A stretch of 34,830 nucleotides of DNA from Anaerolineales bacterium (GTDB lineage Bacteria > Chloroflexota > Anaerolineae > Anaerolineales > UBA6663): assembly GCA_025057205.1 (NCBI GenBank), contig JANWXR010000004.1, forward strand, positions 1 through 34,830. The letters are read 5' to 3'. The notes below the pieces were generated by a model. That model was not told the origin of the DNA, searched no databases, and worked only from the letters and a program-made list of their open reading frames with translations. Below, piece by piece: positions 5,578-30,353 of this stretch. Position numbers and translations under genes: made by a program. The first letter of the stretch is position 1, and each line of letters begins with the position of its first letter.

Positions 5578-5770
5578 ACCGCAGAGCGCGCCGAGTGCGT
5601 GGAGATATGACAATAAAGAACGCTGCGCTCTCGTAACTGCTCAGCTGTCCTGATTTATCCGCAGATTACGTAGCTTTTCGCAGAGGCAATCTGTGACCAT
5701 CTGTGACATCTGTGGATTCTTTTCAACGGCTGGAAGCCGTTGCCTGAGCAGTTACGCGCTCTCTTCGGTT
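5578..5770. repeat. Nonamer-periodic palindromic REP-like element interrupted by a MITE
   Basis: ACCGCAGAG CGCGCCGAG TGCGTGGAG ... CTGCGCTCTC[insert]GCGCTCTCTTCGGT; the arms are imperfect inverted repeats. Confidence 0.65.
5633..5755. mobile_element. MITE-A copy 1 (123 bp; 12-bp TIR; 8-bp TSD)
   Basis: GTAACTGCTCAG (5633-5644) ... CTGAGCAGTTAC (5744-5755) is a perfect inverted repeat, flanked by direct repeat GCGCTCTC (5625-5632 and 5756-5763). Internal palindromes ATCCGCAGAT..ATCTGTGGAT and CAACGGC-TGGAA-GCCGTTG. Confidence 0.9.
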
Positions 5771-7939: not shown

Positions 7940-7963
7940 TCGCCCTCATTGCCTCCGTTTCCC

Positions 7964-10375
7964 TCATTTCCCGATTTGAAACTCCACCCACTTCTTTCGC
8001 AGCCAATACGCACTACGCGATACGTAGCATGTTGCAGTCAACGCGCTCACCACAAGTCCCACCGACCACGTCCACGGCTCAAAGCGCATCTCAACGATGT
8101 GTTCGCCCGGCTCGGCTAGCGGCACGGCGCGGAAGGCAAAGTTGGCACGTAGCACTTCCACCTCGACCCCATTCACCCAGGCGCGCCAGCCGGGATACCA
8201 CACTTCGCTCAGCACCAGGTAGGCTGGGGCCGGCGTGCTCACAGCGATGCGGTAGGCCTCCGGCGAATAGTGCAGGTAGTAAAGATTTGAGTTCGGGGGT
8301 TGAAGGTCGGGCAGCGGCAGAAGCGCAGACGTTTCCAGCACGACCTCCCGTGTGGGGTCGAAGTCGGGCGCCACGATTGCGGCGAAGGCGGCCTCGCCAT
8401 CTGGCACTGCCCGCGCCGCGTACTTCAGGCTGATTCGCGGCTGCGCGTTGGTGTTCAGCCAGATGTCCACGCCGGGGTCGTCGTTGAAGACGGGGACGAT
8501 GTCCGGGTCGTCGGCGGGCGGCCGGTCTTTGGCGGCTACAATCCACTGCGCGCCGAGGAAGTCGTAGCGCGGCGCACCACGCGGCCCCATCGAGCCGATG
8601 TAGGTCTGATAAGCCGCCAGCACCAGCGGATTGCTCACCCCGCCGATGTCCTCCAACCCGTGCCGCGCTGCCGCGTCCGGCGCCCAGGCGCCCGTGGTCG
8701 AGTCAATGCGCGTCGGGCCGGGCCGGCTCTTCAGGTAACCAACGGCAACGGGATGTTGGAAGCCGAGCGTCGGGTCGGCGAAGTCCACCTCGACGAACGC
8801 GCCGTGGAAGAACAGGTCGGCGGCGAGGACGATGATGGCGAAGGCGGGGGCGAGGGAGGATAGAGAGTAGCGAGTAGAAAGTAGTAAGTAGGCGGCGAGG
8901 AGCAGGGCGAGGGTTACGGCCAAAGTCCAGAGCAGGTTCGATACCCGCTCTCCGGCTGGCGCTACGACAAGATATGCAATGACCAAGATTGCTACAGCCA
9001 CAACGCCAAATCCGGCAACCCATCGCCCTCTCTCTTTGCACTCCGCGTTCTCTGGGGTGAACACTCTCTGAAAGCCGAAGCCCGCCAGCACGGCCAGCCC
9101 CAGGTCGGTCAGCAGAACAAACCGCGCCGGCGCGCGCATTTGCGCAAAGCCGGGGACGAACTCGTAGAGCAAGCGATGCAGCGGCGTGTTCTCGCCGAGG
9201 GCGATGAGCAGGCTGAGGAAAGCAAGGGTTGCCCAGAACCCTTGGGTGCTGAGTCGGTGACCGGGTGAGTGAGCGATGAGGTGAGTGGAGCCGCTGTGCG
9301 AAGTTGTTGTGCCGGGCCTCTCAATCAAGGCGATGCCGGCGAAGACGAGCGGCAGCATGCCCAGGTAGCCCAGCTCAACGCGCAGCCACGGCCCCCAGTA
9401 ATCCGCGGCGCCGCGCCCGAAGAGCAGCGGTGAGACGAATCCGGCCAGCCCCGCCCAGGGCAGGGAGTACAGCGCGGCTTCGGGGTACCTCAGCCGCGCG
9501 CGCGCCGTGTACTGGGTCAGCTCAAGCGCCGGCAGCAACGCCAGGGCGCTCAGGCCGAGGGCGGCGAGGAAGACGAGGCTGAGGAGAATCGCAGAGCGTA
9601 TTGCGTATTTCGTATTCCGTTCACGCAACACGCAATACGCTATACGCCATACTCCCATACAGCCTATTGCCCCAAAGCTTATCAGCATCATCTGCGCGTG
9701 GCCGGCCAGCGCAGCGATGCTCAGCACCGCGCCTGCGGCCAGCGCCCAGTTCACGCTGCGGCGCGTCAGGCTGAGATGCAAACAGGCCAGCGCCAGCGGC
9801 AGCCAGGCCGACACCGCGACGATGTTCAGGTTGCCGATGTGCGTGACCAGGACATCGGAGAACATGAAGGCGACGGCGGCAAAAATAGAAGGAAGAAGGA
9901 AGAAGGAAGAAGGTGGAAAGAAGGGAGAAGGAAGAGGGTGGAAGGTTGAGGTTGGAGTGGCGTGAGCGCCCGCTTTAGTGTTCTCTTGCGTGCCGAGTAG
10001 GACTCGCATTAATACATACATCGAAGCGCCGGCCAGCCAGAAGTGAAAGACCACCAGCCATTCGATAGCGCGGTAGGGGAAAGAGGGCGCCAGCGCGAAG
10101 GCGAGCAGGTTGGGGGGGTAGAACAGGCCGCTCTGGTTATCGGCGGCGAAGGGCATGCCGGCGTAGAGCGTCTCGTTCCACAGCGGAATGCGCCCGCTCC
10201 ATAGCGCACGCGCTGCGTACGAGTACGTCGGCCAGAGGAAGGAGGCCAGGTCACCGCCGCCGCGCGGGATCCACGCCACGCCCAGCGTCACCGGCCAGAA
10301 GAAGATAAGCGCCAGGCCCGCCAGCGCCGCCAGCGCGATCCAGTCATGACGATGCCGGCGAAGCCAGACACCCAT
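7964..10375 (-). CDS. YfhO-like multi-pass membrane protein (GT-C glycosyltransferase-like)
   Basis: GDLASFLWP..GRIPLWNETLYAGMPFAADNQSGLFYPP, many TM segments, RAPARF, and C-terminal YLVLSEVWYPGWRAWVNG..RANFAFRAV..GEHIVEMRFEP typical of YfhO. Confidence 0.88.
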   Translation of the reverse strand: MGVWLRRHRHDWIALAALAGLALIFFWPVTLGVAWIPRGGGDLASFLWPTYSYAARALWSGRIPLWNETLYAGMPFAADNQSGLFYPPNLLAFALAPSFPYRAIEWLVVFHFWLAGASMYVLMRVLLGTQENTKAGAHATPTSTFHPLPSPFFPPSSFFLLPSIFAAVAFMFSDVLVTHIGNLNIVAVSAWLPLALACLHLSLTRRSVNWALAAGAVLSIAALAGHAQMMLISFGAIGCMGVWRIAYCVLRERNTKYAIRSAILLSLVFLAALGLSALALLPALELTQYTARARLRYPEAALYSLPWAGLAGFVSPLLFGRGAADYWGPWLRVELGYLGMLPLVFAGIALIERPGTTTSHSGSTHLIAHSPGHRLSTQGFWATLAFLSLLIALGENTPLHRLLYEFVPGFAQMRAPARFVLLTDLGLAVLAGFGFQRVFTPENAECKERGRWVAGFGVVAVAILVIAYLVVAPAGERVSNLLWTLAVTLALLLAAYLLLSTRYSLSSLAPAFAIIVLAADLFFHGAFVEVDFADPTLGFQHPVAVGYLKSRPGPTRIDSTTGAWAPDAAARHGLEDIGGVSNPLVLAAYQTYIGSMGPRGAPRYDFLGAQWIVAAKDRPPADDPDIVPVFNDDPGVDIWLNTNAQPRISLKYAARAVPDGEAAFAAIVAPDFDPTREVVLETSALLPLPDLQPPNSNLYYLHYSPEAYRIAVSTPAPAYLVLSEVWYPGWRAWVNGVEVEVLRANFAFRAVPLAEPGEHIVEMRFEPWTWSVGLVVSALTATCYVSRSAYWLRKKWVEFQIGK
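8861..8891. repeat. Heptamer tandem repeat inside the YfhO-like CDS
   Basis: TAGAGAG TAGCGAG TAGAAAG TAGTAAG TAG, encoding YLLLSTRYSLS. Confidence 0.75.
9596..9660. repeat. Palindromic heptamer repeat (GCGTATT/AATACGC) inside the YfhO-like CDS
   Basis: GCGTATT GCGTATT TCGTATT CCGT..ACGC AACACGC AATACGC TATACGC CATACTC; the same family is intergenic at 24551-24607. Confidence 0.85.
9887..9955. repeat. AGAAGGA heptamer tandem repeat inside the YfhO-like CDS
   Basis: AGAAGGA x3, AGAAGGT..AGAAGGG AGAAGGA AGAGGGT GGAAGGT, encoding STFHPLPSPFFPPSSFFLLPS. Confidence 0.85.
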
Positions 10376-10394
10376 CCGTAATTGCCCGGGCCGT

Positions 10395-10826
10395 TTACGG
10401 TTGAAGGATCTTGGTCAGAATGCGCACCGGCATCTCGCTCCAGCCACGCGCTTCGTAGAACGGGATCACCTCGGTGTTCTGCGGCGTGATGAGCAGATAG
10501 ACCTTGCGGCAGCCCTTCGCCTGCAGGCGGGATTCGACCTCGCGCAGTAGGGCCGCGCCCAGACCGTTGCCGCGCAGCTCGGCGGCCACAGCGAGGTGAT
10601 AAATCAGCCCGCGCCTTCCATCCCACCCGCCGATGACCGTGCCGGCCAGGCGCCCCGCCACTTCGGCGACGAGGAAAAGGTCTGGGTCGCGCGTCAGCTT
10701 CTTGGCAATTTCATCGCGCGTGTCGGAGAGGCCGACGCCGATGCCCGGCCCGGCGTTGCGCCAGAGCGCCAGCGCCGCTTCGTAGTCGCGGTCGAGGTCG
10801 AATTCGCGCAGGGTGAAGGTGAGCAC
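10395..10826 (-). CDS. GNAT family N-acetyltransferase (YpeA-like)
   Basis: DPDLFLVAE..GTVIGGWDGRRGLIYHLAV..RGNGLG..GCRKVYL..FYEARGW. Confidence 0.92.
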   Translation of the reverse strand: MLTFTLREFDLDRDYEAALALWRNAGPGIGVGLSDTRDEIAKKLTRDPDLFLVAEVAGRLAGTVIGGWDGRRGLIYHLAVAAELRGNGLGAALLREVESRLQAKGCRKVYLLITPQNTEVIPFYEARGWSEMPVRILTKILQP

Positions 10827-10849: not shown

Positions 10850-12637
10850 TCAGTCTTCTTCGCCGCCGACGATGCGCTTCCACGCGCCGTGGATGCCGTC
10901 CTCGGTGACGCCGTAGTAGACGTAGATGTGGCCGTTGATGCGCTGTGCCAGGTCGTAGCGGGTGACGCCGCCGCGGGTCGTCTTCTTGATGAGCGCTCGG
11001 TCGTTCTGCCAGTGGAGGCGGGCCGGGTCCAGCCGGCCGCTTTCATGCTCGGTGATGGCGTAGTGCCAGAGCTTGCGGGCGCTGGCTCGAGTCACGTTCT
11101 TCACCACGTTGCCGTTGCGCAGGTCGCGCATGGTGTGATACTTGCGGCCGTTGCGCTCTTCGGTGGCGACGATTTCGACGCCGGTTCGGGGCGCGTCGCG
11201 CAGCGCTTCGGGGGTGGAGGGCGTTGCCGCCGGCAGACCGGCGGGCGCTTCGGCGGCGGAGTCGGGCGCGGGCGGGGGAACAGGTGACAACGCCGGCCCG
11301 GTCGCCTGACCTGTGCCGTGCACCAATCCCCGACCTGCCCGGCCGCGCAGCACCAGCTGCACGATCTCATCGCGCACGGCCATGGAGGTCTCGGCTTCAT
11401 CCCGCACGTAGATTTTGTAATCCTCGACGGCGTAGGGCGGGTCGTCGCCGCGTGGCGTGAGGATGCGAATGATGGTCTTGCCCCTCGTCTCCAGCGTGTC
11501 CACCGTACACTCGAGGTGGGGCGTAATCATCTGGTCAATGGCCGCGCGCAGCTCGCCGGCGGTCTGCTTCGGGTTCGGCACGCCGTGCGGCGACTGCTTG
11601 GGGTCGGCACTGACGCCGATGTAGACCGTGCCGCCGTTGGTGTTGGCGAACGCGCAGACATCGGCGATGATGGCGTACTGTTTGCCGCCGCGCACCTGCG
11701 CGCTCTCGTGGAAGGACTGCACGATGTTAGGGCCTTCTTCGCGCGCCTGCTGCACGTAGTCGAACTCAACTTCGGCGGTAGGGCTGTGCGGGCGGGTGCG
11801 GGCGAAGTCGTTGCCGGCGAACAGCTCCTTCAGCGACTCAAAGCTGACGTCATCAAGGAGCACATCGGTGGCGCGGTCGCCGACGCCCAAGTTCTTGGGG
11901 TTGGCCGGATCGCGGCGCAGCCGGTGGGCGTCCGAACCCTGGATGCAGTGCATCCGGCGCGGATATTCGGGTTTGGAGCCGTTGAAGAAGCCTTTGGTGG
12001 AGCCGCGCCCTTTGCGGTCAAGGTCGGTCACTTCGAGCGCAGCCAGGTGCGGGTCTTGGGTATAGGCGATGCGCGTTTGCCCACCGAAGCCGAGGCCGCG
12101 CATAGCCACGCCGTTGGACGAGTTGGCGTGTGCAGCAATGGCGATGCCGCCCGCCTCGGTGATAAGGCGATAGGCGGTGAGCACGTCGGCGGTTGCGCCC
12201 ACCTGCGCCGAGCCGAGGTCAATCTGGTCGCGCGGCACGTGAAGGCTGAGCAGCAGGTGCTCCAGCTCGCGGCTCGGCGTGTCCGGGGGGAAGATGCCCA
12301 GGACATGAAAGCCGAAGGTGGCGGTGAACTCGAAGCCGGGCAGGACGAGGATTTTCTGCATCAGCCGGCGATACTCGGCCAGACGGCGCTGCTCGTCCGG
12401 CAAGATGCGGCCGAGGCGTTCGAGGAATTCCAGTTCGCGGATTTCATCTTTGAGTCGCCGGATGCCGGCCACCGTGTTGTGGTCGGTGATGGCGATGATG
12501 TCCAGGCCGCGCGCTTCGGCGCGCTGGAGGATGTCGAGGTAAGTAACGTTGGGTTCCTGGTAATCACTCGAGGCGGGGGTGTGGATGTGTAAGTCCATCA
12601 CGCGCCAGCTTCGGGCGCGTTTTGTCTTGGGGGGCAT
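10850..12637 (-). CDS. PHP phosphoesterase domain + Schlafen/AlbA_2 domain + uncharacterised C-terminal domain
   Basis: PHP motifs [34 protein letters not shown]; AlbA_2 motif [22 protein letters not shown]; Pro/Ala linker; C-terminal domain of about 110 aa. Confidence 0.85.
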
Positions 12638-16410: not shown

Positions 16411-16533
16411 GTCAATGCTCCGCTATCCTGATTGAGCCACAGATGTCGCAGATTTTTGCGGAAAAGAGTCTGTGACTATCTGCGATGTTTGTGGAATCTC
16501 CAGCCCATCGGCGATTATGGCCTGAGACGTTGT
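16411..16533. mobile_element. MITE-A copy 2 (degenerate, 123 bp) inside a nonamer REP-like element (~16387-16597)
   Basis: GTCAATGCTCCGCTATCCTGATTGAGCC resembles GTAACTGCTCAGCTGTCCTGATTTATCC; right end CTGAGACGTTGT; shared core TCTGTGACYATCTGYGAYRTYTGTGGA; TSD GGATGCGA/GGATGCAA; same length as copy 1. Confidence 0.82.
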
Positions 16534-20683: not shown

Positions 20684-20692
20684 GCATTGGAA

Positions 20693-20752
20693 TGACTGAT
20701 AACTGAAGACTGAAGACTGAAGACGGATGATTGAGTCTTCAGTCATCAATCA

Positions 20753-20755
<3 letters not shown>
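20693..20755. repeat. Palindromic heptamer repeat (AGACTGA/TCAGTCT) between ino1 and pgsA
   Basis: TGACTGA TAACTGA AGACTGA AGACTGA AGACGGA TGATTGA..TTCAGTC ATCAATC ATCA; the ino1 stop codon lies in the last unit. Confidence 0.85.
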
Positions 20756-21838
<1,083 letters not shown>

Positions 21839-24528: not shown

Positions 24529-24550
24529 TGGCTTAAGGGGTGAACAGGAT

Positions 24551-24607
24551 ACATATTGCGTATTCCGTAGCGGACGAACACTGTGCAACACGCAATACGA
24601 GATACAC
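24551..24607. repeat. Palindromic heptamer repeat between convergent glnS and the STAND kinase gene
   Basis: ACATATT GCGTATT CCGTA ... GCAACAC GCAATAC GAGATAC. Confidence 0.75.
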
Positions 24608-24608
24608 T

Positions 24609-27434
24609 CTACGGCGGACATGGCCCACGCAGATAGCGCCGGCACTCCGCCGCCGTCCAGGTGCGCGTGAGGGCGCGGCGTGCTGCTTCGAGGAGCGCAG
24701 GTGTATCTTCAGGCGACGCCTGGTTCGGGTCGGCGGCACGCAATGCTCGGCGCAGGGCGTCCTCGACTTCCGGCATCGGGCGCTCGGTAAGGGAGGCAGC
24801 GTGCAGGGCGAGCAACAGGCTAAGTTGGGGATCGGTGGACGCAACCAGTTGCGCCTGCGCGGCCAGCTCGTACACCTGCGCCAGACGCGCCTGACTCTTG
24901 GCGCGACGGATGTTGACGCTAGCCCAGTAACCGGAGATGAGCACGGCGCTGACGGCGACCGTCGCCAGCGCGAGGATGAGGCCGAGGTAAAGTGAGCGCT
25001 GCCGTTGCTGCCGGTGTGACGTGGCCTGTTCGCCGGCGCGGCGCATCTCGATCTCGGCCAGACGCCGCGTCGCCTCGATTTCGCGCTGACGCAGGCCCTC
25101 GCGTTCGGCGGCCTCGCGTTCGCGCAGGGCAATGCTGGCGCGAATGAAGTCGCGCTCTGCCTGACCGATCTCGGACTCGCGCTCCGCCAGCCAGCCTTCC
25201 GCGCCGACAAGGAGTGCGCCGCGCAACAGCGCGCCCTCATCGTGGCCGGCGGCCTCCCACTGCTGCATCATGCCGCGTAGCCGCTCCTGCCAGGCGCGGA
25301 AGTTGCGGTTCGCCTGCATCCACTCGCGCAAGCGGCTCCAGCTGCGGATCAAGGCCTCGTGCACGATTTCGGCAGTCTCCTGTCCGCTTGGATCGCGATT
25401 GGTGACGAGCAAGCGTGCGTTCGCCAATTGTTGTACCAGTGGCCAGGCATCCTCCAGTTCGGCGCGCGTGGCTTGGCGCCGCGTGTCTTCCGTCCCCTCG
25501 CCGGGGCGCACCAGCTGGACAAGGGCGCGGCGCGCCAAGGCCTGCTGTTCGGCAGACAGCTCACTGTACACTTCCTCGGCGTAACGCGCCAACGCACCCT
25601 CCACACGACCGATCTCTTCGTAGGCCTGATGTGTCAAAAGCCTGCTGCTTTGTTTGGCCCACAGGGTTGTCAGCGCGAATTCGAGCAGCGGCAGGTTCCC
25701 CGGCTCTTCGCCCACGTCGTCCAGAATGCGCTCGACCAGGCCGGATTGGAACTTGACGCGCTGCTTGCGGGCCGGCTCTTTGATGGCGCGGGTCAGCTCT
25801 GCCCGCGTCATTGGGCCGAGAAAGAGCGTAGCGTTTTGCAATGCGTCGGCCAGCAGGCGGTGCGAGAAGGCTTGTCCAAGAAAGTCTGCACGCATGGTAA
25901 GCACGATATGCAACTGTGGACACTCGTCCAGCCCGGTGAGCAGCACATCAATAAACGCACGGCGCGTTTCCGGATCGGGGCAGACGGTGAACAGCTCCTC
26001 GAACTGGTCAATGACCAGCAGCAGGCGATGTTTGTCGGGCCGGCTGCGCAGAAAGAGCTTGACAGCGTTGGCAAGCCGCACCGAGCCGTCGCAGAGCGAG
26101 TCGGCCAGCGATTGTAACTGTTTGACGCGCTCAGGGGTCTCCGGTGGAAGCACAGCATTCGCCAGCGCCTCGAATGGGCGTGCGCTAGGGCGCATGTCGG
26201 TGAGCAGCCAGGCCTTTTGCTGGGATTGGCGCAGCGCAGGAGCCTGCCGCAGGCGCGAGACCAGCCCGGCGAACACCACCGACGACTTGCCACTGCCGGA
26301 TGGCCCGACCACCGCCGTCAGCTGTTGGCTCTCCACTCTGTCGCTGAGCGTGTCGGTGAAGTCTTCGCGCCCGAAGAAGAAGGGTGCATCATCTTCCTGA
26401 AAGGCAAACAGCCCGCGATATGGGCAGGGCGGGGGCGATGCTGCAAGGGTGACCATCGTGAGCGGCGGCGTTTCGGCGAAGTCCTGCTGTTCGCGCAGCC
26501 GGTGCAGGCTGCGCGGCACAATCGGTGGGGCGCTCGTCAACTGTTCAGCCGTCACGCCCAGCGCCTCGCGCAAAGCCAGCGCCAATGCACCGGCGGAGGG
26601 GTAACGGTCCTCGGGCCGCTTCGCCAGCGTCTTCAGGATGACCTGCTCCACCGCTGCCGGCAGCTCCGGATTGAAGCGCGTCGGTGGCGGTGGGGGTTGT
26701 TCCACCTGCATCCGCAACAGGTCGTCGGGGTTCTCGGCGTCAAAGGGCACGTTGCCCGTCATCAGCCCGTAGAGGATGATGCCGAGGGCGTAGATGTCAC
26801 TGGCGCGGTCGCCGGGTTGGCCCTGGCACAGCTCCGGGGCCATGTAGATGGGCGTGCCGGCAGGTCGTCCGCTGGTGACGACGGGCAGCGCGTCGCCGAC
26901 CATGCGCGCGATGCCGAAGTCGGTGAGGATGATCTGGCCGTCATTGGTGAGCATGATATTGCCCGGCTTCAGGTCGCGGTGGATCATATTGCGCGCGTGG
27001 GCATAATCCACCGCGGAAGCCAGCGCGTTGAACAGAAGGACGGTCTCGATAGGTGAGAAGGTGGGACGGTTGGGGATGGCCGTTAGGCTGCGCTCGTGAA
27101 TCTCGGTGGCCAGCGTCGGCCCCTCAATCAGCTCCATCACCATGTAGTACAGGTCTCTTTCCATGTCCACGTCGAAGTCGAAGACTTGGACGATGTTGGG
27201 ATGGCGCAGCCGGGCCGCCAGCACCGCCTCGCGCTCAAAGCGCTTGATGAAGCCGGGTTGCTCGGCAAAGTGCGGATGCATCACCTTAACGGCGACGAAG
27301 CGGTCAAGGCCGGGCTGAAAGGCCTTGTACACTTCGGCCATCCCCCCAGAGCCGAGTTGTGAGACGAGGCGGTATTTGCCGAGGGTGGTTCCAATCACAC
27401 GAAGCAGTTTAGTTGGGCCGGGCAGTTTTGCCAA
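24609..27434 (-). CDS. Ser/Thr protein kinase + nSTAND1-type NTPase + TM helix, lacking WD40 repeats
   Basis: Kinase GSGGMAEVY, VAVK, HRDLKPGN, DFG, APE; CPYRGLFAF..FFGRE, Walker A GPSGSGKSS, Walker B LLVIDQFEELF, LPLLEFAL, EIVHEALIRSW; TM LYLGLILALATVAVSAVLIS. Start may be GTG 27398. Confidence 0.92.
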   Translation of the reverse strand: MAKLPGPTKLLRVIGTTLGKYRLVSQLGSGGMAEVYKAFQPGLDRFVAVKVMHPHFAEQPGFIKRFEREAVLAARLRHPNIVQVFDFDVDMERDLYYMVMELIEGPTLATEIHERSLTAIPNRPTFSPIETVLLFNALASAVDYAHARNMIHRDLKPGNIMLTNDGQIILTDFGIARMVGDALPVVTSGRPAGTPIYMAPELCQGQPGDRASDIYALGIILYGLMTGNVPFDAENPDDLLRMQVEQPPPPPTRFNPELPAAVEQVILKTLAKRPEDRYPSAGALALALREALGVTAEQLTSAPPIVPRSLHRLREQQDFAETPPLTMVTLAASPPPCPYRGLFAFQEDDAPFFFGREDFTDTLSDRVESQQLTAVVGPSGSGKSSVVFAGLVSRLRQAPALRQSQQKAWLLTDMRPSARPFEALANAVLPPETPERVKQLQSLADSLCDGSVRLANAVKLFLRSRPDKHRLLLVIDQFEELFTVCPDPETRRAFIDVLLTGLDECPQLHIVLTMRADFLGQAFSHRLLADALQNATLFLGPMTRAELTRAIKEPARKQRVKFQSGLVERILDDVGEEPGNLPLLEFALTTLWAKQSSRLLTHQAYEEIGRVEGALARYAEEVYSELSAEQQALARRALVQLVRPGEGTEDTRRQATRAELEDAWPLVQQLANARLLVTNRDPSGQETAEIVHEALIRSWSRLREWMQANRNFRAWQERLRGMMQQWEAAGHDEGALLRGALLVGAEGWLAERESEIGQAERDFIRASIALREREAAEREGLRQREIEATRRLAEIEMRRAGEQATSHRQQRQRSLYLGLILALATVAVSAVLISGYWASVNIRRAKSQARLAQVYELAAQAQLVASTDPQLSLLLALHAASLTERPMPEVEDALRRALRAADPNQASPEDTPALLEAARRALTRTWTAAECRRYLRGPCPP

Positions 27435-28408: not shown

Positions 28409-28528
28409 GACTCCAGTGCAAAAACTATGATCTCACCGCGAAGCCGCGAAGGGCGCAAAGGCTTTGCTCCTGTTTTCCTTAGCGTTCTTGGCGTCTTCGC
28501 GGTTCACATGGACTTTTTTCAGTAGAAC
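28409..28528. mobile_element. Degenerate MITE-C carrying a nonamer palindromic REP-like element
   Basis: Left GACTCCAGTGCAAAAACT versus reverse-complemented right GTTCTACTGAAAAAAGT; flanks CACAACAT/CGCAACAT (7 of 8). Cargo ACCGCGAAG CCGCGAAG GGCGCAAAG ... CTTAGCGTT CTTGGCGT CTTCGCGGT (28435-28503). Confidence 0.55.
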
Positions 28529-28565
28529 CGCAACATGCAATACGGAATGCGCAGCGCTTAGCCCC

Positions 28566-30353
28566 TCAGGGTTCGTGCGCATTAAGGCGCCGGCTGGCGC
28601 GATAAGGCGGGATTTCCAACACCTCGCCGGCTCTGTGCCGGGCCTGCATATCGCGCCAGAAGCGTGGCGTGAGCAGATCGCCGTGCGCTTCCAGAAAGGC
28701 GCGCCGCAGCTCGCCGGTCAGCCCCAGAAAGTTGCCGAACTCCTCGGGAAAGATGTCCTTCTCGCCGACGTAGTACCATGGCTCGGCGCTCATTTCATCG
28801 TCGTAGCTGCTCGGCGGTGGCAGGTCACGGAAGTTGCAATCGGTGAGCATGGTCAGCTCGTCGTAGTCGTAGAAGATAACGCGCTTGTGACGTGTGACGC
28901 CGAAGTTCTTGAGCAGCAGGTCGCCGGGGAAGATGTTGGTGGCGGCCAGGTCTTTGATTGCCTGGCCGTAGTCCAGCACGGCGTCGCGCGCTTCTTCCGG
29001 CGATGCTTCGCGCAGGTACAGGTTGAGCGGCTTCACGCGCCGCTCGACATAGACGTGCTTGAGCACTACGTCCCTATCGGTAAAGTCTACGCTCTCGGTG
29101 GCCGTGGCCAGCTCCGCCAGCAAGTCGGGCGCAAAGCGCTCGCGTTCGAACGTCAGGTGGCGAAATTCCTGCGCGTCCACCAGCCGCCCGGCCCGGTCGT
29201 GCTGGAACACCAAATCGTATTTGGCCAGCACATCACGGCGCGTCGTCATCTTTGGCGGGGCGAAGTGGTCGCGGATGACTTTGAAGACGATGTCGTAGGA
29301 GGGCAGGGTGAAGACGACCATCACCATGCCTCGATCGCCCGGCGCGATGACAAAGCGGTCGTCGGAGCGCTCCAGATGCTGCAACAAGTCCCAGTACAGC
29401 TCGGCCTTGCCGTGGCGGTTGTAGCCGAGGGAGATGTACAGCTCGGCGAGGCGCTTCCAGGGCATGAGCGATTTGAGGAACTCGACGACTTGGCGCGGCC
29501 GCTCCAGGTCCACATGGAAGTAGGAGCGGGTATAGCTGAAGACGATGCTGACTTCGTCCTCGGTGAGCAACACGGCGTCTGCAGCGACGCGCCCACCCCG
29601 GTTGCGCAGGACGATGATCAGCGGCATGGCGCACTCGCCGCTGCGCAGACGGCCCACCAGGTAGGCGGCCTGGTTGCGATAAAAGATGGGCCGGAGCAGA
29701 TCGGCGGCTTCGAAAGGGCGCCCGCCCCAGTCCTCGCGCCGGCGCTCACGTTCGAGCACACGCGCGATGAGGGCGGCGTCGCGCTCCAGGTCTTCATAGG
29801 GAATGCGGAAACGCGCATGTTGCAGGCAGGTGCGGGCCAGCGCCGTCAGCGACTCGCCGGCGACGTAGGTGATGTACGGCGGCTGATCATTTGCGGTGAA
29901 GGTGGGCGGCGTCTCCAGGTCGGCGCCTTGAAACTCGATAGGCACATCAATGCCGACGGTATCGAAGACGCGGCGTGTGACGGAAGTGAAGTACGTCTTG
30001 GCGATCTCGGCAGCCGGGTGGCTTTGGCACAACTCGGCGTAGGCGTGCTTGACGTAGCGCCATAGGTTGCGGTTGCGGAAGCGTTCGCCGATGAGCGGGC
30101 GCAGGTGTTGCAGCGCGCCCTGGATGTAAATCTCGCGCACGTTGAGGCGCTCGACGGCATCAGCATGTAAGCCGCGCCAGTCCTGTTGTTCGAAGCGCTG
30201 CTGTGCCCGGCGCATCAGCCCGCGCAGCGCAGCACGGTAGCCGCCGAACGATTGCCAGATTGCACACGCGCACTCATGCGCCAGCTCGGAGACGGTGGTG
30301 GGGAGAGGCAGCGCATCCAGGTGAGCGGCGCCGTTCATTTCGCTCCGTTCCAA
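28566..30353 (-). CDS. aceK: Isocitrate dehydrogenase kinase/phosphatase
   Basis: [88 protein letters not shown]. Start may be ATG 30338. Confidence 0.96.

Follow-up and report, generated by a model that had tools for sequence, protein, structure and literature searches.

Can repeats of 7 nucleotides (nt) be carried in frame by a conserved membrane enzyme, and do they switch that enzyme on and off? The question is raised by a window of 34,830 nt from an Anaerolineales bacterium of hot-spring origin (assembly GCA_025057205.1, contig JANWXR010000004.1, positions 1 to 34,830), in which a YfhO-like gene for a putative glycosyltransferase of the GT-C type contains several short-period tandem repeats. 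Repeat units with a length not divisible by three are expected to be excluded from genes; here they are in frame in many conserved proteins. The locus is a real but, for its lineage, ordinary case of heptamer microsatellites that are translated within the permissive loops of such a protein, and it is not a glycosylation switch. The arrays are probably tolerated heptamer microsatellites of the type known, for example from cyanobacteria, as short tandemly repeated repetitive sequences or long simple sequence repeats (STRR/LSSR), filtered for reading frame, stop-free orientation and permissive loops.

Heptamer arrays in the YfhO-like gene

Periodicity was measured by Tandem Repeats Finder (TRF) and as self-identity at lag 7 or lag 9 over 21 positions, compared with the coding windows of the genome. 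In addition, two-unit words of the 12 commonest genome-wide heptamer families were searched with at most 2 mismatches in 14. This family scan matched the gene at 8003-8024, 8856-8893, 9593-9652 and 9885-9939, with no other matches; the density is 40.6 matches per kb versus 0.99 per kb in 150 sampled genes, and shuffled copies of the gene gave about 0.35 matches per copy. Ten clusters were found by the same scan in the whole window, four of them in this gene. The four confirmed arrays consist of unit families that are abundant genome-wide, namely AATACGC, AAAGTAG and AAGAAGG with 64, 53 and 12 arrays, respectively. At least three tandem 7-nt copies, as in STRR/LSSR, are present in the TRF rows 8861-8891, 9596-9620, 9623-9652 and 9887-9935. 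The arrays of the gene are short and imperfect, with 3.6-7.4 units and 73-88% matches. Site B is an inverted pair, and CTACTTT is the sole stop-free orientation of the unit of site D. Chance or assembly artefact was considered as a source of the arrays and rejected, as they recur in an independent metagenome-assembled genome (MAG) and in Logan contigs of public runs.

A sequence-only reading of this DNA had listed seven tracts in one open frame, taken as repeat families that had entered a glycosyltransferase gene. Four of the seven are the arrays above, and the presence of genome-wide repeat families in frame in this gene is confirmed. The other three (9245-9290, 9032-9062 and 8283-8310) have no family match, and their self-identity is reached by 1.7-8.6% of coding windows (Table 1). 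A further nonamer tract claimed across the stop codon exists in TRF, but it is weak. Among the intergenic relatives named in that reading, AATACGC-type repeats were recovered at 24550-24605 and 28529-28553, and 5578 yielded none.

The arrays lie in the sole long open frame of the region, which is intact. Against the Pfam family YfhO (PF09586), the product scored 22.2 bits, under the gathering cutoff of 28.5, with only the C-terminal residues 719-777 matched; arrays may lower family-model scores in this way. Of 8000 candidates scored in a homology search, 790 proteins had E <= 1e-3, and 120 of these were listed. PF09586 is annotated (precomputed) in most of the listed orthologs, which are 42-79% identical to the query, and several of them bear the NCBI name YfhO family protein (Anaerolineae or Chloroflexi). 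A paralog (L086) reached 52.8 bits. As its orthologs carry PF09586, the query belongs to the YfhO orthologous group though itself sub-threshold. An AlphaFold2 model computed from a 115-sequence alignment has a mean predicted local distance difference test score (pLDDT) of 90.9 and a predicted template-modelling score of 0.92. The model has an N-terminal polytopic membrane module and an extracytoplasmic beta-rich domain of 244 amino acids (aa), which is the arrangement of the GT-C fold. All 28 Foldseek matches in PDB at E <= 1e-3 are GT-C enzymes, with ArnT 5f15 as the best (E 7.5e-8), followed by AftD, AftA, AglB, Emb proteins, STT3 and PglB. Residue D42 of a GGGDL motif is invariant in 26 aligned sequences and at least 90% conserved in 115; it is putatively catalytic and would lie outside the membrane, in the first extracytoplasmic loop.

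In the predicted structure, the arrays are mostly in coil, low-confidence loops or helix ends. Topology was assigned from the helix count starting at the positively charged N-terminus, with the conserved GGGDL loop set outside as in GT-C enzymes; positive-inside counts per loop are too small to fix the topology by themselves, and the assignment follows helix parity and the GT-C pattern. Under this assignment, sites A, B, C and D, the 438-448 loop and the C-terminal tail would all be cytoplasmic, and 689-698 would be the only claimed site in the outer domain. The earlier description of the tracts as loop or transmembrane peptides agrees with the model, which has them in loops and at ends of membrane helices, but their predicted cytoplasmic side speaks against a role in surface display.

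Table 1. Features at the YfhO-like locus, with periodicity and position in the predicted structure. Percentages in the self-identity column are shares of coding windows that reach the value.
Feature	Positions	Strand	Residues	TRF or family scan	Self-identity	Peptide and position in the model
YfhO-like GT-C gene	7964..10375	-				803-aa polytopic membrane protein, ~14 predicted membrane helices
Site A, AAGAAGG family (coding strand CCTTCTT)	9885..9956	-	~140-164	~7 imperfect units; TRF 9887-9935/9956, unit AGAAGGA, period 7, 7.4 copies, 73% matches	lag 7, 20/21 (0.05%)	..HPLPSPFFPPSSFFLLPS..; coil 135-154 at pLDDT 50-61 (disordered loop), then start of helix 155-171
Site C loop, not periodic today	9245..9290	-	~362-377	no family match	lag 7, 9/21 (8.6%)	within coil 352-371, pLDDT 56-63
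Site B, inverted pair of AATACGC-family arrays	9593..9652	-	~242-261	TRF 9596-9620, GCGTATT x3.6, then 9623-9652, ACGCAAT x4.3 (complement family)	lag 7, 18/21 (0.1%)	..WRIAYCVLRERNTKYAIRS..; end of helix 227-251, three-residue turn, start of helix 255-275
Claimed nonamer half of a repetitive extragenic palindrome, not a repeat	9032..9062	-	~438-448	no family match	lag 9, 11/21 (3.9%)	short loop between helices 416-439 and 448-471
Site D, AAAGTAG family (coding strand CTACTTT)	8856..8893	-	~495-507	~4.4 units; TRF 8861-8891, unit TAGAAAG, 4.4 copies	lag 7, 17/21 (0.13%)	..YLLLSTRYSLSSL..; end of helix 478-500 and loop 501-508
Claimed AGATTTG tract, not confirmed	8283..8310	-	~689-698	no family match	lag 7, 11/21 (1.7%)	contains family-wide conserved NLYY
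Short AATACGC-family array	8003..8024	-	~784-791	family scan	lag 7, 13/21 (0.4%)	C-terminal helix and tail
Weak period-9 tract across the YfhO stop codon (7964-7966)	7943..7972	-		TRF 3.3 copies, 66% matches, score 32	lag 9, 14/21 (0.2%)	upstream of short-chain dehydrogenase gene start (7939)

Arrays across the genome and among relatives

The genome of the window is a bin of 2.48 Mb in 715 contigs, with G+C content of 62.7% and 63.6% completeness. Genes were called by a crude home-made scorer of open reading frames (ORFs) based on codon usage, which gave 2010 ORFs covering 76% of the DNA; this scorer and the incomplete, fragmented MAG make every genome-wide count an approximation. Among the TRF classes, period 7 comes first (632 of 3075 rows), with 500 rows for period 9, 334 for period 10 and 296 for period 8. 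The 632 period-7 arrays represent 159 canonical units, headed by AATCTCC (73 arrays), AATACGC, AAGACTG (62), AAAGTAG and ACTGATG (41). They are located inside ORFs (226), over an ORF end (132) or between genes (274). As only 36% of the arrays are inside ORFs that cover about three quarters of the DNA, they are depleted in genes, yet frequent there. The same families are dispersed over many loci and, as judged from the crude gene calls, under-represented in coding DNA, both as in STRR/LSSR. The length of arrays modulo 3 did not differ between those inside genes (78/76/72) and outside (96/94/84), although the boundaries given by TRF are too fuzzy for such a test.

The array-richest genes by Pfam assignment are a PurS-PurL fusion with seven arrays, and a Wzy_C O-antigen-ligase-like protein and a membrane protein without assignment with five each. 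A second YfhO protein has four arrays, the same number as the gene studied here, and further carriers are HypF, a class I/II aminotransferase, a HemN-like radical SAM enzyme and a RidA-like protein. In-frame heptamers are a genome-wide habit and not specific to the YfhO-like gene. The sequence-only reading had seen no repeats in core genes such as lon, glnS or icd. Inside the window this is correct, apart from one isolated match at 29796-29810 in aceK, but as PurS-PurL, HypF and other enzymes are carriers elsewhere in the genome, the sparing of core genes is limited to the window. A special link to envelope enzymes is not supported either: for the top 12 families, proteins with no more than two predicted membrane helices hold 80 of the 108 arrays that are in frame. 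Array density is about 2.5-fold higher in proteins with at least 8 helices (0.128 versus 0.051 per kb), a figure that depends on 11 arrays only. The YfhO-like gene itself has 4 TRF arrays in 2.4 kb, versus an in-gene average of about 0.06 per kb for the top 12 families.

Three tandem units of AATACGC (at most 1 mismatch) have 83 matches in the genome of the window and 0 for the reversed control. In genomes of the same genus, 109 matches were found in one and 0 in three others that are 95-97% complete. A few relatives from the family and order gave 2, 11, 1 and 22 matches, and 2 of 200 other sampled genomes of the phylum contain the repeat. This patchy, bloom-like distribution among species of one genus, together with the same unit families at dozens of loci and the palindromic form of one site, could be expected of selfish mobile elements that insert as units into genes, similar to Rickettsia palindromic elements (RPE) or miniature inverted-repeat transposable elements. 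Such an origin is very improbable here. For 287 arrays belonging to five families, the 40-nt flanks have no conserved sequence or termini, with information content that never exceeds 0.5 bit per position, and the arrays are therefore not carried by any defined element; besides, unit number varies freely from 2 to 18 copies, and the loop sequences of the hairpins differ between arrays. RPE, the precedent named in the sequence-only reading, are defined elements of about 100-150 bp with conserved sequence, present in frame in proteins. The arrays are like RPE in being repeated DNA in frame in conserved proteins, away from catalytic cores, but unlike them they have only 7-nt units in variable copy number without conserved flanks.

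Orientation of the arrays inside genes is strongly one-sided. In units with a stop codon in one orientation, the open one is favoured, with in-gene counts (closed to open) of 0:7 for AAGACTG, 0:8 for AAGATTG, 3:15 for AAAGTAG and 1:6 for ACTGATG. Two units are open both ways and are nevertheless read mostly in one way: AATCTCC as NLQSPIS 24 times and as GDWRLEI once, and AATACGC as NTQYAIR 17 times and as AYCVLRI once. The lone in-gene case of the AYCVLRI type is one arm of the inverted pair at site B. Between co-directional genes there is no orientation bias (78 versus 84).

Arrays in orthologous loci

Orthologous loci were collected from species-representative genomes (70) and metagenomes (12), with 380 kb in total, in which TRF reported 111 period-7 rows. 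In 74 loci, a frame of 1500 nt or more is free of stop codons; 26 of these loci carry a total of 52 in-frame period-7 arrays (at least 2.9 copies), and 48 are without any; four loci of the collection (L008, L072, L074 and L075) are near-identical. The repeat units vary by lineage, and the arrays cluster at query residues ~60-64, 153-158, 204-206, 240-264, 352-382, 452-455, 500-508 and 687-690. Six orthologs have arrays at 687-690 and others at 352-382, the region of site C. All seven tracts claimed in the sequence-only reading are at or within ~5 residues of these recurrent positions, and for this reason the three presently non-periodic ones may be decayed arrays. For site C, a length gain common to close relatives and a 20-column gap in orthologs at <=63% identity are compatible with a decayed array. 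The tract at 9032-9062 aligns gap-free with orthologs down to 57-59% identity, and the NLYY motif at 8283-8310 is aligned throughout 26 sequences. Other 7-residue-periodic peptides are present at site A of close relatives, e.g., ..HHSSFIIH.. in P0003 with 79% identity.

Two orthologs were compared in detail: L001, the independent MAG already mentioned, with 94% aa identity, and L002 from the same genus, with 71-74% aa identity and no TRF array. In comparison with L002, the query has extra residues 143-154 at site A (12 aa) and 365-372 at site C (8 aa), a single extra residue (500) at site D, and no gap at site B, which aligns residue for residue with the repeat-free sequence. The tracts had been expected to be lineage-specific insertions of a length divisible by three. 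As sites B and D keep their length, or nearly so, insertion is supported at sites A and C only; the alignment at the other two counts in part against the sequence-only reading, by a condition set in that reading itself.

Decay of the gene, which would have counted against the sequence-only reading, is contradicted by substitution rates. Omega (Nei-Gojobori) outside the tract loops is 0.137 versus L001 and 0.194 versus L002, and inside the loops it is 0.588 and 0.355, respectively. Judged from these values, the gene is under purifying selection and not decaying, and the array-coded residues seem to evolve with relaxed constraint, perhaps near neutrality. The protein is presumably synthesised. 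These rates bear also on the idea that arrays are kept as useful peptides, i.e., as adjustable linkers or helix extensions that tune the length of GT-C loops and serve as an evolvability device. The repeated use of the same loop positions in orthologs, the one-sided orientation even of units open both ways, the well-ordered helix ends coded at site B in the model and the higher array density in proteins with many helices would all suit such a role, and an analogy is offered by Borg proteins, in which, according to parts of PMC9879509, tandem repeats create disordered regions. However, omega is higher in the tract loops (0.59 versus 0.14), array-free orthologs are common, unit families differ between lineages with no conserved peptide, and most in-frame arrays are in unrelated soluble proteins. 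A selected function of the peptides is therefore unlikely.

An action at the level of nucleic acid was considered as well, with the hairpin of site B in mRNA pausing ribosomes or RNA polymerase, or with the arrays as recombination sites, and the peptides as a by-product. An 81-nt mRNA-sense stretch of site B folds at -34.3 kcal/mol (z -5.0), and an effect of this fold at the RNA level is possible. The short array at 8003-8024 corresponds to the left arm of a hairpin that is complete in L001, where it spans the stop codon and folds at -38.3 kcal/mol (z -3.9). Synteny with L001 and L002 in blastn stops near 7987, at this 3' AATACGC array. On the other hand, among 293 arrays in the five top families, TRF detected an inverted partner within 60 nt for just 30, and only one of the four arrays in the gene has two arms. 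The intergenic hairpin at 24545-24610 does not exceed its shuffles in stability (z -1.1), and a single breakpoint is an anecdote. Taken as the reason for the arrays, such an action is quite improbable. At the breakpoint, the hairpin or tail in L001 (2465-2575) and L002 (3720-4000) is followed by another membrane-protein gene, while in the window (7940-8030) a short-chain dehydrogenase gene is present instead; contigs of run X1 contain both 3' junction forms.

The least probable explanation, with hardly any chance of being correct, is the one proposed in the sequence-only reading, that the gene is a contingency locus in which slippage by one unit turns the glycosyltransferase on and off (phase variation). 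A single gain or loss of a 7-nt unit would indeed shift the frame, and the product is an envelope-type enzyme. Simple-sequence contingency loci are known from host-adapted pathogens, such as the tetramer tracts in Haemophilus and Neisseria. The locus resembles them in having a repeat unit not divisible by three inside an envelope-related gene, but it lacks tracts that are both long and perfect, neither unit-number polymorphism nor a frameshifted allele was found, and housekeeping genes, in which switching would be senseless, carry the same repeats. A general account of such loci is contained in parts of PMC4679880 and PMC4692102. Heptamer arrays of Cyanothece differ mostly by 7-nt indels, but these are intergenic (PMC4679880, in part). 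Between the window and L001, a single strain pair compared on contigs, no 7-nt difference was found in the four arrays: three are equal in length and the AGAAGGA array is one codon (3 nt) shorter in L001, which stays in frame. No frameshifted or non-3n OFF allele at an array was found among the 82 ortholog loci. High-scoring segment pairs in two frames occur in 2 of the 82; in L011 the change spans a run of N, and in L041 it is in array-free DNA. Judged from contigs and ortholog loci, phase variation is unsupported.

Words of the window were found in 8 public runs, which are hot-spring metagenomes searched as Logan contigs; none of them contains half of the sampled words, and no RNA runs are listed among them. 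The Logan contigs break at the AGAAGGA array (9885-9916), and short contigs of high depth match the AATACGC tract only. One contig joining 8026 to 9600 was considered as a deletion and rejected, for its sides are only 21 nt long; it is attributed to a different AATACGC locus. In runs X2 and X3, the summed depth over 9600-9684 is 715 and 217, versus 0-30 in adjacent bins. As the matching contigs cover the repeat only, the AATACGC family is present at other, more abundant loci or organisms in these two runs.

The origin favoured here, tolerated heptamer microsatellites, would operate as follows. Arrays would arise and turn over throughout the genome, with slippage as the putative engine, perhaps together with exchange between arrays; replication slippage is the usual assumed origin of such arrays. 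Three filters would then decide what persists in genes: the net array length has to preserve the frame (three units are 21 nt, or 7 aa), the coding-strand orientation has to be stop-free with a harmless peptide, and the position has to be structurally permissive. A GT-C protein could accumulate several arrays because it has many short non-catalytic loops, mostly cytoplasmic by prediction, and a free C-terminal tail. The arrays would be translated as loop or helix-end peptides under relaxed constraint, with the rest of the enzyme under purifying selection.

Several points weigh against this origin, besides the approximate genome-wide counts. The model has site B as well ordered (pLDDT 94-97) and not as a floppy loop. 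Because L002 equals the query in length at site B and almost does so at site D, insertion followed by tolerance is unsupported there, as far as the alignment tells; near-consensus units in a segment of conserved length would need either old arrays homogenised by slippage or exchange, or replacement in place. The clustering of arrays in a few genes fits permissiveness, but it would fit targeting as well. The one-sided reading of units that are open both ways (24:1 and 17:1) might reflect a directional process or a preferred peptide and not just a filter. It is conceivable, though rather unlikely, that Anaerolineae have an active process with sequence specificity by which the dominant heptamers are written or homogenised again and again at existing array sites. 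Candidates would be repeat synthesis from a template at breaks and directed gene conversion among arrays. If so, the same loops would be re-seeded with new unit families, and arrays would stay near the genome consensus despite divergence of the gene; GT-C loops would serve as landing pads that are actively kept, and the lineage would possess a built-in source of peptide inserts with a period of 7 residues.

Relation to known repeats and other observations in the window

Abundant 7-nt simple repeats (Mrazek 2007) are summarised in parts of PMC4679880. According to the same parts (MacGregor 2015), TAACTGA arrays are found in Beggiatoaceae, cyanobacteria and Bacteroidetes, where they are mostly intergenic. 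Ten TAACTGA sets of a Beggiatoa genome are interior to ORFs in the stop-free orientation, and one of them falls in a variable loop on the surface of an RNA-polymerase beta-prime-like protein. GGGNATC arrays in Xanthomonas and Nostoc are described in Rehm 2015 (PMC4692102, in part). The arrays reported here share with STRR/LSSR the tandem 7-nt units in 2 to ~20 copies, the spread of few families over the whole genome, the mainly intergenic position or under-representation in genes, the patchy phylogeny and the lack of a known mechanism. They differ in their host, a member of Chloroflexota (Anaerolineales), in the coexistence of several unit families in one genome, in the equal unit number in the one pair of close strains compared, and in one ortholog family whose loops hold units that vary across many lineages. 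A much larger share is inside ORFs, with 226 of 632 arrays versus 10 interior sets out of 169 in the Beggiatoa genome BOGUAY, by the part of PMC4679880 that gives the latter count. Borg tandem repeats, as presented in parts of PMC9879509, are similar in being fast-evolving repeats in ORFs that add low-complexity or disordered peptide. With a unit of 7 nt, only net lengths divisible by three survive here, and the peptide repeats every 7 residues. No literature on heptamer arrays in Chloroflexota (Chloroflexi) or Anaerolineae was found within the limited collection searched.

No new regulatory switch is revealed by the locus. The arrays show, as a map made by nature, which places of a GT-C membrane enzyme can accept extra peptide, and they are a clean system for the birth, spread and filtering of bacterial microsatellites. 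They also fragment metagenome assemblies, as contigs break there, and their presence is a point for annotators of Chloroflexota genomes. A called gene is missing on one side of 83 of the 279 top-family arrays not fully in genes, which places these arrays near contig ends, and arrays probably contribute to the fragmentation of the bin into 715 contigs.

Contig C247 of the bin is 100% identical over 1003 nt to positions 2948-3950 of L001, and the YfhO region is only 94% identical; the bin may mix two strains. The GNAT acetyltransferase gene at 10395-10826 is apparently missing in L001, in which positions 1-143 correspond to 10902-10768 of the window and positions 127-2516 to 10379-7987; the stretch concerned in the window is 10380-10767.

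By Pfam assignment, the neighbours of the YfhO-like gene are a GT4 glycosyltransferase, the short-chain dehydrogenase, the GNAT acetyltransferase and a Schlafen AlbA_2-domain protein (595 aa, 10850-12637). More distant in the window are Lon, a class Ic aminoacyl-tRNA synthetase, AceK and isocitrate dehydrogenase. The Schlafen AlbA_2-domain protein and a protein of 941 aa with a protein kinase and an nSTAND1 NTPase domain (24609-27434) are of kinds often discussed as defence-related.

Other short-period families are also frequent in the genome, mainly between genes: period-8 AAGCCGCG with 34 arrays, period-10 AACACGAATG and AATGGACACG with 33 and 28 arrays, respectively, and period-9 AACGCTAAG with 13. 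Examples of such repeats in the window are located at 5689-5714, 16430-16500 and 28436-28510. An inverted pair of GACTGAA type at 20691-20757 folds at -25.1 kcal/mol (z -3.6). This pair and the predicted 5' end of a CDP-alcohol phosphatidyltransferase gene overlap, so that the start of the gene may be miscalled.

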